A stretch of DNA of 64,000 nucleotides from Candidatus Nomurabacteria bacterium (GTDB lineage Bacteria > Patescibacteriota > Patescibacteriia > HK-STAS-PATE-3), in assembly GCA_023898465.1 (NCBI GenBank), contig CP060223.1:768001-832000 (forward strand), given 5' to 3'. The notes beneath the pieces are model-generated. The model had not been told where the DNA came from and ran no database searches. It worked only from the letters and a program-made list of their open reading frames with translations. Of this stretch, positions 8,352-52,341 are shown piece after piece. The translations under genes and the position numbers were made by a program. Numbering within the stretch: the first letter of the stretch is position 1; each line of letters begins with the position of its first letter.

Positions 8352-8423
8352 TGCCGTGGGAGGGATTCGAACCCCCAACCTTCAGATTACGAGTCAGATG
8401 CTCTACCACTGAGCTACCACGGC
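8352..8423 (-). tRNA. tRNA-Thr (anticodon CGU)
   Basis: Hand-folded: acceptor GCCGTGG/CCACGGC, D-arm GCTCAGTGGTAGAGC, anticodon loop CUCGUAA, T-loop GGTTCGAATCC; one U-U mismatch in the anticodon stem. Confidence 0.7.
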
Positions 8424-8579
8424 AGCTGTGTTGCGGGTCCTCAGGGCCTGCATGCTCTTCCCAGCGTACTGGACACTTTGGGCTGCAACACAACTTTTTA
8501 AGGACAGGCCGGGAAAATCCCGGGGGTGTTTATCTATGCACCTCTCGGTGAACTGATGGTATTTCACCTGTCCAAGATG

Positions 8580-8650
8580 AGCGGGAGACGGGATTTGAAC
8601 CCGCGACCTTCCGCCAGAGGCGGCTGCTCTGCCAACTGAGCTACGCCCGC
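8580..8650 (-). tRNA. tRNA-like gene with degenerate anticodon arm (possible pseudogene, identity unresolved)
   Basis: Good acceptor, D-arm (GCTCAGTTGGCAGAGC) and T-arm (GCGGGTTCAAATCCCGT), but the region between them is about 2 nt short and folds as CCGCC-UCU-GGCGG rather than a 5-bp/7-nt anticodon arm. Confidence 0.4.
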
Positions 8651-8796
8651 AAAAAAGAACGGACTAAGAATGTAGCGTATCCCCAAAAAGCTGTCAACCC
8701 TGTACCAGGCTTGGTGCGAGGTCAACCCTATCGTTCGCGAACTACGGAATCAAGAAAAAGGGAGATGCCATCAATGATGAACATCTCCCGAAGATT

Positions 8797-8868
8797 TGGT
8801 ACCTCCTGGAATCGAACCAGGGTAACCCGATTTTCAGTCGAGCACTCTACCAACTGAGTTAAGGTACC
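8797..8868 (-). tRNA. tRNA-Phe (anticodon GAA)
   Basis: Acceptor GGTACCT/AGGTACC, D-arm ACTCAGTTGGTAGAGT, anticodon loop CUGAAAA, T-loop GGTTCGATTCC. Confidence 0.75.
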
Positions 8869-8956
8869 GCTAGAGCGTGGCGGAAAGGCGAAGGACTTTC
8901 ACCAACTCACTGATCAAGACCAGCGTGTCCTCGGGGACGCCTTTCCAGAACAGATG

Positions 8957-9028
8957 AGGCGGGTCAAGGATTTGAACCTCGGAATCGCGGATTTGAAGAC
9001 CGCTGCCTTACCACTTGGCTAACCCGCC
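8957..9028 (-). tRNA. tRNA with apparent UCA anticodon (Trp-like anticodon arm; would decode UGA/UGG)
   Basis: Acceptor GGCGGGT/ACCCGCC, anticodon arm GCGGU-CUUCAAA-UCCGC (compare canonical Trp CCGGU-CUCCAAA-ACCGG), T-arm CGAGGTTCAAATCCTTG. Genes in the window use TGA as a stop, so the anticodon assignment needs tRNAscan-SE. Confidence 0.5.
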
Positions 9029-9050
9029 TTTCAACCTATAAGTTAGAGAG

Positions 9051-9124
9051 GCGCCCTGGAAGGAATTGAACCTCCGACATCTGGGTCCATAGCCCAGCGC
9101 TCTTCCGACTGAGCTACAGGGCAC
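9051..9124 (-). tRNA. tRNA-His-like (G-1:C73 present) with an AUG rather than GUG anticodon triplet
   Basis: 8-bp acceptor including G-1 paired to C73 (a His identity element), D-arm GCTCAGTCGGAAGAGC, anticodon arm CUGGG-CUAUGGA-CCCAG, T-loop GGTTCAATTCC. A34 is unusual and may be a variant or sequence error. Confidence 0.5.
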
Positions 9125-9133
9125 AACAAACGG

Positions 9134-9206
9134 TAGCGCAAGCAGGATTCAAACCTACGTTTCCACACAGAGAATGTGGCGACCTAAACCACTAGTCGAT
9201 TGCGCC
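9134..9206 (-). tRNA. tRNA, Glu/Gln-like (anticodon loop UUCUCUG, CUC?)
   Basis: Acceptor GGCGCAA/TTGCGCT, Glu-type D-arm GACTAGTGGTTTAGGTC, anticodon stem CCACA/TGTGG, T-loop GGTTTGAATCC; position 37 is not a purine, so the identity is tentative. Confidence 0.45.
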
Positions 9207-9311
9207 GGCAAATAGATTGCGACAGACCCTCTTCCGAGAGAGTGACGGCTCATCCTGCTATGAAAGAGGCCATCACAAAATGGTAAGCAATGTACTACAC
9301 CTGATCTAATG

Positions 9312-9386
9312 CGGCGCTGACAGGATTTGAACCTGCGAAACACTCGGCTGACCGCCGAGCTGCCTTAACCACTAGACTACAGCGCC
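9312..9386 (-). tRNA. tRNA, Asp-like (anticodon GUC; position 33 reads G)
   Basis: Acceptor GGCGCTG/CAGCGCC, anticodon arm CUCGG-CGGUCAG-CCGAG, T-loop GGTTCAAATCC. Confidence 0.5.
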
Positions 9387-38137: not shown

Positions 38138-38266
38138 ATCTGAGTAAAATACTAAGATATAAAAACTCGCCTGTCAACGTCTACTTTGACAAGCAGTGCC
38201 TGCAAAATCTATGCTACCCCCATACTCGTTCTTTCACACCCGTTCCCATGCAGGAAAGGAATACTC

Positions 38267-38911
38267 ATGGACGCTCTGATGACCAGCCTTGTGCAGGCAC
38301 CAATTCGCAAGAGTCGGCCGACCTGCGCTCGACGTCGATCTCACCGCTTCCAGCAACTACGTCATGGAACCCGACTTCGCCCTCTGGCAATCGCGCTCAA
38401 CCAACTCAACATCAGACCTTTCGTCAAGGCTGATGTGGAGAGATACAAGCGTGCACGTCGCGCTGAGTGCGAACCAACGCTTCGTCGAGATGCGCGCTTC
38501 AGGCGCTTCTTCCACATCAGCGCTAAGGTCGCCGCGATATTCGTGATAGTGTCTGCCATCTACTTGGCGGTACCTGGTCCGGCTCAATTCGCGGCGACTT
38601 GCTCGCTACTTGTTTCGTCGGTCTACCTGACTGCAAACCTCATCCTCGGCTGTCGCCTGCAGTTGCGAACTTACGTCCGCTGGCAGACCTGGAAAATCGA
38701 AACAGAGTGGTGCGCTTACCCAGGCGTACTTCCCGATCCTGTACAGCTACAGATCGCCAGGATCAAGGAGGTAGCACCGGGCGCTCGCTTCGAGGTCGAA
38801 GACCTCCGTTACAATACCGGACGGGTCTATGACCCACTCCTGTACGCGTGTCTGGATGAGGAACGCTTCTGCGTAGCAACTTGGCTAGGCAAGGAATGCC
38901 GAATCGCCTAA
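38267..38911 (+). CDS. hypothetical membrane protein (basic N-terminus, two TM helices, about 75-aa C-terminal domain), GC-rich island
   Basis: AGGAAAGG Shine-Dalgarno then ATG at 38267; about 59% GC versus about 48% backbone; no motif recognised. Confidence 0.45.
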   Translation: MDALMTSLVQAPIRKSRPTCARRRSHRFQQLRHGTRLRPLAIALNQLNIRPFVKADVERYKRARRAECEPTLRRDARFRRFFHISAKVAAIFVIVSAIYLAVPGPAQFAATCSLLVSSVYLTANLILGCRLQLRTYVRWQTWKIETEWCAYPGVLPDPVQLQIARIKEVAPGARFEVEDLRYNTGRVYDPLLYACLDEERFCVATWLGKECRIA

Positions 38912-39344: not shown

Positions 39345-39614
39345 ATGCGGAACGAAGACGCTGATGCAATGCACTTCCACTGGGGGATCACGAACTGCGT
39401 TGTCATCGACGTAGAAGAAAGGCCTAGAGCAAGTGCGGTACGCACTTTTGCTCAGGACAACCAAGCTACTTGTTCAGAGGGAAATGAAGTCCTGGTGCGA
39501 TGCACCTGCACTGAAATTCGACCTCAGCTACTTAGTGTGAGGAGGCTCCAGTCCTTTCTCACCGAACATCGTTCTGGTCATCCAATAAACTCGCCCAAAG
39601 AGGAGGGGGAATGA
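39345..39614 (+). CDS. small acidic Cys/His-motif protein, paralogue 1 of a tandem triplet (unknown family)
   Basis: 89 aa; shares NCVVI...VLVxCxC...FLxxHxxGHP with the two following ORFs; 4-nt overlap with the next ORF. Confidence 0.5.
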   Translation: MRNEDADAMHFHWGITNCVVIDVEERPRASAVRTFAQDNQATCSEGNEVLVRCTCTEIRPQLLSVRRLQSFLTEHRSGHPINSPKEEGE

Positions 39615-39889
39615 AAGCAGTCAACGCTGGTGAACACGGCAACGAGCACGTCCGGGTCTGCGTTGTCATCGAAGGAGATGAGAACCGAGATATTCTGGAA
39701 ATCTACGCTTTCGCTCGCGAGGTTCAGGCCATCGAGCCTGACGAGCCGCAAGACGAGGCTAGCGATGGAGAACGCGTCTTGATTTGTTGCGAATGTCCGG
39801 GCGGAGACAGACCTCGCTTCGCTGACCATGACCAACTGATCGCCTTTCTCCGCGATCACAACTCAGGCCACCACGCTTCGGTGGAATAG
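39611..39889 (+). CDS. small acidic Cys/His-motif protein, paralogue 2
   Basis: 92 aa; VCVVIEGDE...AFAREV...VLICCECPG...FLRDHNSGHH. Confidence 0.5.
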   Translation: MKAVNAGEHGNEHVRVCVVIEGDENRDILEIYAFAREVQAIEPDEPQDEASDGERVLICCECPGGDRPRFADHDQLIAFLRDHNSGHHASVE

Positions 39890-39904
39890 CCGGAAGGAGA
39901 CTAC

Positions 39905-40177
39905 ATGCATACCGTAGCCGCTACGGCACCATCGAAGCAAGTCAAGAACTGCGTCGTAATCCAGCTAGGAGAGCATCCCTCTCTAGAGACGCTCCTTGCC
40001 TTCGCGGCAGAGCATGCGGCCGTCAGAGTTGACGAGCAACCCGACGAACTCAACGACGGTGATCAGGTCCTGGTCACCTGCAATTGTCGGGACGGCTCAG
40101 GGCAGCAAATGCTCCTCACCGTGCCGGAGATTGAGCAGTTTCTCGAAAGTCACGCCTTGGGGCATCCCTCGGGGTAA
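39905..40177 (+). CDS. small acidic Cys/His-motif protein, paralogue 3
   Basis: 90 aa; NCVVIQLGE...AFAAEH...VLVTCNCRDG...FLESHALGHP. Confidence 0.5.
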   Translation: MHTVAATAPSKQVKNCVVIQLGEHPSLETLLAFAAEHAAVRVDEQPDELNDGDQVLVTCNCRDGSGQQMLLTVPEIEQFLESHALGHPSG

Positions 40178-40273: not shown

Positions 40274-41110
40274 CTATTTCAATAACTTCGCCTGTTGCTG
40301 CAACTCCTGTATCCGCTTCCGTTCTTGAGTAGTGAAACCGTGCATATCCGTTAAGGTTAACAACTCCTGTATCGTAACCACTCCGATTCGGAAAAGCTTC
40401 GATTTCATACTCGAGTCTAAACTCATGAGAATGGTGATAGGATAGACTTTTGTCTGCTCAATAAGCTTTTGTAAACTTTGATCAGCCGGATGACCCCAGC
40501 TAAGAATGTGCACGTTTGCGCAACGGGCGTATTTCATTGCTTCGGTGGTACATTTCGTATTTGTAACTAGCCAGGCATGCTGGACATGCTTCTTAGGGGC
40601 CAGGCGCTGTTCATCTTCTTTGGCTTGGAAAGCTTTTCCAATGTCATCGAAGCGTGCCTTAATATAGAGCGCCACCTTTACATCAGTCTTCATGCCGCGT
40701 CGATTATGATACTTGCACTCAAAAAGATGCAGCTGACCATTCTTGCGGGCTAAAATATCAACCTCGTGTGAAACACAGAAGCCGCGAACATATTGATCAG
40801 TTTGCACGCTGTACCCTAAGGCACTCAACAAACGCGCGACGTATTGTTCAAAAGGAAACCCGGTCGGACCAAGATTCATTATCGCTCGTTTCAAACCATA
40901 ACGCATGGCCTGCTTGGTATTGAGCTGGGCTAGTCGACTTTTTGCATAGGAAAAAATCGCTTGCGTCGACTTATGGAGTTTTGGCTTTAAACTTATTTCC
41001 TCAGCCAAACCTCGGGCCACTGTACCCGGCACTCCAGAATTTTGTAAAGACTGAATAAACTTCTCTGGCTGAAAAATCTGGTATTCACCGGATGATTTAC
41101 GGATGCGCAT
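40274..41110 (-). CDS. ATP-cone domain fused to Mrr-like restriction-endonuclease-fold domain
   Basis: N-terminus YQIFQPEKFIQSLQNSGVPGTVARGLAEEI (ATP-cone-like); core FEQYVARLLSALGYSVQTD...HEVDILA...LHLFECKYH matches the Mrr_cat/PD-(D/E)xK pattern. Confidence 0.55.
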   Translation of the reverse strand: MRIRKSSGEYQIFQPEKFIQSLQNSGVPGTVARGLAEEISLKPKLHKSTQAIFSYAKSRLAQLNTKQAMRYGLKRAIMNLGPTGFPFEQYVARLLSALGYSVQTDQYVRGFCVSHEVDILARKNGQLHLFECKYHNRRGMKTDVKVALYIKARFDDIGKAFQAKEDEQRLAPKKHVQHAWLVTNTKCTTEAMKYARCANVHILSWGHPADQSLQKLIEQTKVYPITILMSLDSSMKSKLFRIGVVTIQELLTLTDMHGFTTQERKRIQELQQQAKLLK

Positions 41111-41225
41111 AGGTATATTGTAGCACGTACTTAGGGTATAGTCTTGACATTTCTATAAAAATCGCTAAGGTCAGACTGCTTTTGGAGCATTGACATCAAC
41201 CGCTAGAACAGAGGAGGAGGAGTAG

Positions 41226-41468
41226 ATGACGCTCGCAGCTACTGAACTTAGGCCTGGGATGACGGTGCGGAATCTGCGGAGCGGTCTCACCGCTACGGTC
41301 ACCGAACCGCTGAGGGTCACGGGCGATCCGCTGCACGTACACGTCAGGAGGACGATGGAGGGAGGCGAGAGCAACGGTAAGACCAAGTTGACCACCTGGA
41401 GTCTCGACAACGTCGAGATCGTGCCGGTGGCTCAGGAGCCTGTCGACAACGATCGGCAGGTCGGCTAG
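41226..41468 (+). CDS. small GC-rich hypothetical protein with its own strong RBS and terminator
   Basis: GGAGGAGGAG Shine-Dalgarno 5 nt before ATG; 80 aa; about 62% GC. Confidence 0.4.
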   Translation: MTLAATELRPGMTVRNLRSGLTATVTEPLRVTGDPLHVHVRRTMEGGESNGKTKLTTWSLDNVEIVPVAQEPVDNDRQVG

Positions 41469-50556: not shown

Positions 50557-52040
<1,484 letters not shown>

Positions 52041-52341
52041 TAAAGATTTTTTATTACCGCATCCGAAGATGAGGCACCAGAAAGATCTTCAAAACTGGTA
52101 TGGAATCATTATTGGGATTCATGTGTACCGATCACGCTCGAACTGTCAACGATCTGAACTATTTTTTCTTATCTTTATGGGGCGTCCGAGCGTGAGCGGC
52201 GCATCCCCATCAGAGTGAAGAAAAAACAGTGGAATCCGATTCGAAAATCAGACGCTACTGTTTTTCCTTACACCGTCCTGCTAGTTGTTAGGGCAGAGGG
52301 TATGTGAAGGCTTGTTTCCAGCTAATCGTAAGAGCATGCAC

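Follow-up and report, generated by a model that had tools for sequence, protein, structure and literature searches.

A divergent ATP-cone joined to a predicted Mrr_cat/AF1548-type nuclease in Candidatus Nomurabacteria: a possible adenine-nucleotide-gated endonuclease

A 64,000-nucleotide stretch of Candidatus Nomurabacteria DNA (GenBank assembly GCA_023898465.1, contig CP060223.1, positions 768,001 to 832,000; hereafter the window) encodes a 278-amino-acid protein that had been read, from its sequence alone, as an N-terminal ATP-cone fused to an Mrr-like PD-(D/E)xK nuclease. ATP-cones bind ATP and/or dATP in the repressor NrdR and in ribonucleotide reductases (RNRs), where they work mainly through a change of oligomeric state, and they are understood only as the switch of these two groups of proteins. 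The question raised by this locus is what such a domain does on a nuclease. The fusion itself was borne out by hidden Markov model (HMM), profile, solved-structure and fold evidence, and the protein proved to consist of three domains: an ATP-cone, an Mrr_cat (AF1548-type) nuclease and an AF1548-like C-terminal domain, the last of which had been missed in the sequence-only reading. Our favoured explanation, which we hold at about even probability, is that the protein is an adenine-nucleotide-gated endonuclease and not a classical restriction enzyme.

The Pfam model Mrr_cat (PF04471) matched residues 84-202 of the window protein with a score of 28.5 bits, against a gathering cut-off of 21, and matched all 40 of the 40 relatives searched. 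The alpha-beta-beta-beta-alpha-beta restriction-endonuclease-like fold was present, as were the two motifs quoted in the sequence-only reading (HEVDILA at residues 115-121, ECKYH at residues 131-135). Residue conservation was counted over an alignment of 269 diverse relatives, in which the catalytic residues E88, D118, E131 and K133, all intact in the window protein, were invariant; the same was true of E116, R153, D156 and N184. A search of NCBIfam with the window protein returned only sub-threshold YraN-like matches. The only solved relative found by sequence was AF1548 from Archaeoglobus fulgidus (PDB 1Y88), with an E-value of 6e-26 over residues 89-252, or 6e-50 when the family profile was used. 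D118, E131 and K133 align with D38, E51 and K53 of AF1548, which were proposed as catalytic in two papers (PMC1821046, PMC1874628), and AF1548 has been placed in the Mrr_cat group of PD-(D/E)xK nucleases (PMC3424549). This structural-genomics protein has a chain of 199 residues and aligns from its residue 22 to query residue 89 onward; as the alignment starts only there, AF1548 is without an ATP-cone. It is itself without known function, so the match transfers fold, not function. All testable features of the Mrr_cat/AF1548 family were found in the window protein, which by sequence is a member of that family and is predicted to be an active nuclease.

Five near-invariant cysteine and histidine residues were found near the active-site strands, namely C112 (265 of 269 relatives), H115 (258), C132 (220), H135 (258) and C197 (265). 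AF1548 has the cysteines as well, but H115 is replaced by glutamine in it. These residues could form a metal site or a redox-sensitive site.

The N-terminal domain was more difficult to assign. The Pfam ATP-cone model (PF03477) did not match the window protein even at E≤10, although it matched 33 of 40 full-length relatives with a best E-value of 5.6e-9, so that of the two models named in the sequence-only reading only Mrr_cat recognised this protein directly. A profile made from the N-terminal 80 residues of 30 relatives matched the ATP-cone of Escherichia coli NrdR (E 1.3e-5) and, at weaker E-values, the anaerobic RNR NrdD (3e-3) and Streptomyces coelicolor NrdR (0.035). The beta-hairpin and four-helix fold of the ATP-cone was also present in the window protein. 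Because the Pfam model fails directly, the assignment rests on the relatives, the profile and the structure, and on these grounds the window protein carries a genuine but divergent ATP-cone.

The spacing I3-x-K5-x5-(E/Q)11-x-F13-x3-K17 reproduces that of V48, K50, E56, F58 and K62 in S. coelicolor NrdR, residues which contact the nucleotide and whose mutation abolishes both binding and function (PMC9110341); the sole deviation is glutamate to glutamine at position 11. Among the 269 relatives, K5 was conserved in 265, G8 in 260, K17 in 264 and F13 in 248 (with tyrosine in a further 16), and in the motif at the end of the cone Y71 was conserved in 261, arginine or lysine at position 70 in 253 and lysine or arginine at position 74 in 267. 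Position 11 was glutamate in 218 relatives and glutamine in 29. The glutamine marks a deep subclade to which the window protein belongs, and the Pfam ATP-cone model fails in the same subclade. Because the ligand-contact residues are near-invariant, we infer that the domain would bind a nucleotide; the cone is under selection as strong as that on the active site, which is the main argument for binding. The earlier suggestion of a nucleotide-regulated nuclease is strengthened by this conservation and remains a prediction.

An AlphaFold model calculated on a 40-sequence alignment had a predicted local distance difference test (pLDDT) score of 92.6 and a predicted template modelling (pTM) score of 0.89, the latter implying a fixed arrangement of the domains. 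Local pLDDT dipped to 80 at the junction between sensor and nuclease, in which G81, G84, F87 and E88 were invariant in all 269 relatives (pattern G81-P-x-G84-x-x-F87-E88). This junction is a candidate hinge. The C-terminal helical domain is probably a DNA-binding or dimerisation module.

Taken together, the favoured explanation would be a stand-alone, single-polypeptide nucleic-acid endonuclease, acting on DNA or RNA, with its activity set by the adenine-nucleotide state of the cell. The N-terminal cone would bind ATP and/or dATP, as in NrdR and the RNRs, and the signal would pass via the GPxGFPFE junction to the AF1548/Mrr-type core, while the C-terminal helix-hairpin-helix-like domain would aid substrate binding or dimerisation. 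Cleavage might be switched on or off by nucleotide-dependent oligomerisation, which is probable by comparison with NrdR and the RNRs, or by re-packing of the domains. The enzyme would serve to turn over nucleic acids according to nucleotide or energy status, as in starvation or at low oxygen, and we regard such a role as most likely when set against modification-dependent restriction.

In a minority of lineages the family was found linked to a module for nucleotide catabolism at low energy, as would suit an ATP sensor. A gene for a beta-CASP hydrolase of the metallo-beta-lactamase (MBL) fold, carrying the RNA-specificity domain RMMBL, lies immediately beside the nuclease gene in 6 of 90 loci, of which three are from Flavobacteriia, one is from a metagenome-assembled genome (MAG) of Gammaproteobacteria and two are on plasmids of Bacteroidota and Chlamydiota. 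Within these six loci a thymidine-phosphorylase-family gene was present in three, a phosphoribosyl pyrophosphate (PRPP) synthetase gene in two and a phosphoketolase gene in two. The plasmids of Pontibacter actiniarum and Criblamydia sequanensis, two unrelated hosts, carry the same co-directional string of ATP-cone nuclease, MBL-fold hydrolase, thymidine-phosphorylase-family protein and ribose-phosphate pyrophosphokinase, and in Criblamydia this string sits among genes for phosphoketolase, glycogen phosphorylase, acetate kinase and a P-type ATPase. The gene order differs in the Gammaproteobacteria MAG, where thymidine phosphorylase and phosphoketolase are both present. In one locus from Flavobacteriia (L064) a pair of universal stress protein genes is found immediately upstream, and a second such locus (L043) holds universal stress protein homologues too. 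In Bradyrhizobium diazoefficiens, a trio of MBL, PRPP synthetase and thymidine phosphorylase genes (bll3115-3117) and a phosphoketolase are induced under microoxia, in transcripts as well as in proteins (PMC6515984).

This linkage might indicate a wider role, in which the ATP-cone would be a working energy or dNTP sensor gating the nuclease, and the family the entry valve of starvation or low-oxygen nucleic-acid catabolism, acting alone in the genome-reduced Patescibacteria. The proposed route would run from the nuclease to the beta-CASP hydrolase, then to an AMP/thymidine-phosphorylase-like enzyme and into pentose-phosphate metabolism. Genome-reduced Patescibacteria depend on nucleotide salvage. 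In this extended form the proposal is rather unlikely.

Several observations weigh against a nucleotide-gated turnover enzyme. The cone is too divergent for its Pfam model, and with glutamine in place of the adenine-reading glutamate the identity of the ligand could differ; RNR ATP-cones that no longer regulate are known. The catabolic linkage is confined to the 6 loci. Neither the window nor any of the Patescibacteria loci examined shows it; the genes beside the nuclease gene there are housekeeping genes that vary with the clade (MnmA, MgtC, polyprenyl synthase, SNase). The family is found in well under a few percent of species and is thus accessory, which is compatible with a defence role too. 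No biochemistry of any member, AF1548 included, was found in the literature.

The protein was set beside the systems that it resembles in part. NrdR has an N-terminal Zn-ribbon, no catalytic domain and the adenine-reading glutamate, whereas in the window protein the cone begins at M1, with homologues aligning from residue 1-3, and is followed by the nuclease; as there is no Zn-ribbon, the protein is not an NrdR. In the RNR cones (NrdA, NrdD and NrdB of Leeuwenhoekiella) the output is radical chemistry, whereas the output predicted here is phosphodiester hydrolysis. E. coli Mrr and the Type IV enzymes AspBHI and MspJI carry a reader of modified DNA (Mrr_N, SRA-like), for which the window protein, with an ATP-cone at its N-terminus, gave no Pfam match. 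Unlike mobile defence genes, moreover, the family resides on chromosomes, groups by phylum and has no phage copies. Lacking both a modification reader and the behaviour of a defence gene, the protein is not an Mrr-type Type IV enzyme, and since no methyltransferase gene was found in the window neighbourhood or among the 25 most frequent Pfam families of the immediate neighbours at homologous loci, it is not part of a restriction-modification pair. The label of restriction endonuclease in the Mrr sense was not supported, and as an annotation for the family it is probably wrong. The PD-(D/E)xK effectors of CRISPR and CBASS systems (Can2, Card1, Cdn1, NucC) have a CARF or SAVED domain and respond to a dedicated second messenger, whereas the window protein has an ATP-cone and would respond to a housekeeping nucleotide. 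PADLOC matches to CARF-nuclease models covered only the nuclease part (residues 83-166), and neither cyclase nor CRISPR genes were observed in the vicinity of the nuclease gene. The protein is not a CARF-nuclease, and it was assigned to no defence system, as these were cross-matches of the nuclease fold with no CARF or SAVED sensor.

The architecture is already catalogued in databases, and the window protein is one more member of an uncharacterised family. At least 1492 proteins were assigned to it by a word-indexed search, and an exhaustive search of 1.84 billion representatives gave 936 clusters (defined at 50% identity) at E≤1e-3 and 401 at E≤1e-30. Almost all members are 265-295 amino acids long and align from residue 1-4, with a uniform architecture over approximately 400 clusters; a few homologues lack the cone, among them AF1548 and two proteins of about 210-220 amino acids (P0234 and P0251). 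At least 595 matches were confirmed in a scan of GTDB species representatives. The hosts belong to Patescibacteria, Nitrospirota, Actinomycetota, Bacteroidota (among them the cultured species Marinilabilia rubra and Christiangramia echinicola), Gammaproteobacteria, Dependentiae and, among the Archaea, Hadarchaeota, Thermoproteota, Nitrososphaerota and Altiarchaeota. Identity across bacteria and archaea was 35-57%, and 35 positions were invariant in a 40-sequence alignment; the whole family is under purifying selection. A neighbour-joining tree gave phylum-coherent clades with few exceptions, such as the Gammaproteobacteria MAG, which falls inside a Bacteroidota clade. Searches of 50,697 phage genomes and of IMG/VR found no copy, and a set of 72,556 plasmids gave only two. 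The members are annotated in the source databases as 'restriction endonuclease', 'ATP cone domain-containing protein' (RefSeq) or 'Holliday junction resolvase'. Literature searches combining ATP-cone with nuclease, endonuclease or Mrr, and for ATP-cones in Patescibacteria, found no paper discussing this architecture.

The neighbourhood of the gene was compared by all-versus-all clustering of the open reading frames (ORFs) in 87 homologous loci and by Pfam assignment of 145 immediate neighbours in 73 loci. No conserved partner gene was found, no neighbour cluster being present in more than 14 of the 87 loci. The largest cluster, MnmA, occupied 14 loci, all from one clade of the candidate phyla radiation (CPR), and MnmA was also the most frequent Pfam family among the immediate neighbours, with 8 occurrences. 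No recurrent defence family was seen among these neighbours. Recurrent neighbours in Patescibacteria were clade-limited, consisting of MnmA, MgtC, an MltG-like protein and AlaRS, or of SNase with polyprenyl synthase, UPP synthase and RarA; MnmA, MgtC, SNase and polyprenyl synthase were accordingly read as clade synteny and rejected as functional partners. A gene for an MgtC-family membrane protein lies beside the homologue in eight loci, 20-70 bp downstream in L037, L062, L076 and L086 and nearby in L045, L065, L068 and L069. MgtC is tied to ATP and Mg2+ homeostasis in other bacteria, and its link to the family may be clade synteny only. In five Patescibacteria/Saccharibacteria loci (L023, L044, L048, L057 and L076) a second nuclease gene, Cas4/PDDEXK_1-like and encoding approximately 266 amino acids with a C-terminal cysteine cluster, was observed 0-560 bp downstream.

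Four other explanations were considered. A single-gene anti-phage nuclease, Type IV-like or acting by abortive infection, whose cone would detect the disturbance of dNTP or ATP pools by infection and release a promiscuous nuclease, is in our judgement as unlikely as the entry-valve proposal. The Mrr_cat-type core is that of Type IV enzymes, there is structural likeness to sensor-coupled defence effectors such as Can2, Card1, Cdn1, NucC, Shedu and AspBHI/MspJI, the family occurs patchily, as an accessory gene, and some of its placements cross phyla (for example the MAG mentioned above), and on either side of the window gene lies GC-rich ORFan DNA of foreign composition. However, no PADLOC family was matched beyond the shared nuclease fold (best score 23.7 bits, to the nuclease part of a CARF protein), the immediate neighbours were not enriched for defence genes, and copies on phages or in IMG/VR were lacking, with those on plasmids limited to two. 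The clades are phylum-coherent with housekeeping synteny held within CPR clades, and the identity and number of invariant positions retained across bacteria and archaea are unusually high for a defence nuclease. The same patchiness speaks against a core role in repair, and a structure-specific repair or recombination nuclease (Hjc/NucS-like), in which the cone would couple repair to dNTP availability, is somewhat less likely again; no consistent linkage to repair genes was found, and the fold similarities are generic to PD-(D/E)xK nucleases, AspBHI and FokI scoring equally high.

The two remaining explanations each deny a function to one of the domains. The cone might be a degenerate structural or oligomerisation appendage without sensing, on a constitutive Mrr/AF1548-like nuclease; this would account for the failure of the Pfam model, the E11Q substitution in the subclade and the existence of homologues without a cone, but the near-invariance of the contact lysines, the aromatic residue and the R-Y-x2-K motif over all relatives, the Q11 subclade included, is hard to explain without ligand binding and makes it improbable. 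Still further down we place a catalytically silent, nucleotide-sensing regulator in which the nuclease fold only binds DNA. That an ATP-cone can be coupled to DNA binding is known from NrdR, but the invariance of all four catalytic residues, the missing Zn-ribbon and the lack of a conserved target operon adjoining the gene render this very improbable.

The coordinates of the gene, of its domains and of the other features discussed are given in Table 1.

Table 1. Positions of the ATP-cone/nuclease gene, its parts and other features (window coordinates unless a locus is named)
Feature	Position	Strand	Remarks
Complete ATP-cone/nuclease gene	40274..41110	-	278 amino acids, ATG-to-stop ORF; stop codon 40274-40276; full-length homologues
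ATP-cone domain, residues 1-78	40877..41110	-	Beta-hairpin 2-12, then helices; contacts by homology I3, K5, Q11, F13, K17; C-terminal R70-Y71-x2-K74 motif
Sensor/nuclease junction motif G81-P-T-G84-F-P-F87-E88 (candidate hinge)	40847..40870	-	Ends in first catalytic acid, E88
PD-(D/E)xK nuclease core (Mrr_cat/AF1548 type), residues 84-205	40496..40861	-	Catalytic E88, D118, E131, K133
Conserved Cys/His codons	C112 40775-40777; H115 40766-40768; C132 40715-40717; H135 40706-40708; C197 40520-40522	-	
C-terminal helical domain (AF1548-like_C, helix-hairpin-helix-like), residues 210-278	40277..40483	-	
AT-rich upstream intergenic region (likely promoter)	41111..41225	-	GC 0.417; TACAAT box 7 nt before ATG
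Terminator-like hairpin	41508-41490		Between nuclease gene and upstream C39-peptidase gene
Three tandem small paralogues	39345-40177	+	89, 92 and 90 amino acids; approximately 34% mutual identity; GC 0.52-0.58
80-amino-acid ORF	41226-41468	+	GC 0.62, GC3 0.78; without family matches
241-amino-acid ORF	38186-38911	+	GC 0.56; without family matches
Complete 16S rRNA gene	50559-52042	-	
Eight-tRNA-gene cluster	8352-9386		
Nuclease/beta-CASP/thymidine-phosphorylase strings	L089 1972-6597; L090 6001-10608; L069 2866-6822		Pontibacter and Criblamydia plasmids and Gammaproteobacteria MAG; PRPP synthetase in the two plasmids only

The window is chromosomal; it carries a complete 16S rRNA gene together with 11 tRNA genes, eight of them in one cluster. 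No 23S or 5S rRNA gene was detected anywhere in the 64 kb, and the rRNA genes therefore appear to be unlinked. The region upstream of the nuclease gene is likely, from its sequence, to hold a promoter belonging to this gene, from which the leader would be very short, and because of its TACAAT box and the terminator-like hairpin the gene looks like its own transcription unit.

The neighbours of the nuclease gene are the three tandem small paralogues (convergent), the 80-amino-acid ORF (divergent) and a C39-like peptidase gene. The sequence-only reading had placed the nuclease gene in a GC-rich island; GC-rich patches do flank it, and the paralogues are convergent, but the GC content of the gene itself is 0.453 (0.48 at third codon positions, GC3), a housekeeping-like value, against 0.553 and 0.612 in the flanks, so that it is bracketed by GC-rich DNA and not part of it. 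The two patches, containing the 80- and 241-amino-acid ORFs and the paralogues, look like foreign DNA inserted on both sides of the AT-richer gene. All three paralogues share invariant C17, C60-x-C62 and H83-x2-G-H87, a pattern compatible with a possible zinc site. They belong to no Pfam family, and a profile search of 5.8 billion proteins matched only the paralogues themselves, including one Candidatus Nomurabacteria MAG entry. Neither they nor the 80- and 241-amino-acid ORFs were found by tblastn in any of the 88 homologous loci (L001-L088). A functional link between the nuclease gene and these neighbours was dismissed, the paralogues being lineage-specific ORFans that accompany none of the other homologues examined.

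Nothing was found that is specific to this window, and the idea that emerges is a clean and testable one. The test system is simple, consisting of one 278-amino-acid protein and ATP or dATP, and cultured hosts are available, among them Christiangramia echinicola, Marinilabilia rubra and Pontibacter actiniarum. If nucleotide gating of the nuclease is true, an ATP-cone would for the first time be seen to control an enzyme other than a ribonucleotide reductase, and the regulatory logic of the RNRs and NrdR would extend to nucleic-acid degradation. For the Patescibacteria, it would point to a controlled conversion of nucleic acid into nucleotides or energy.
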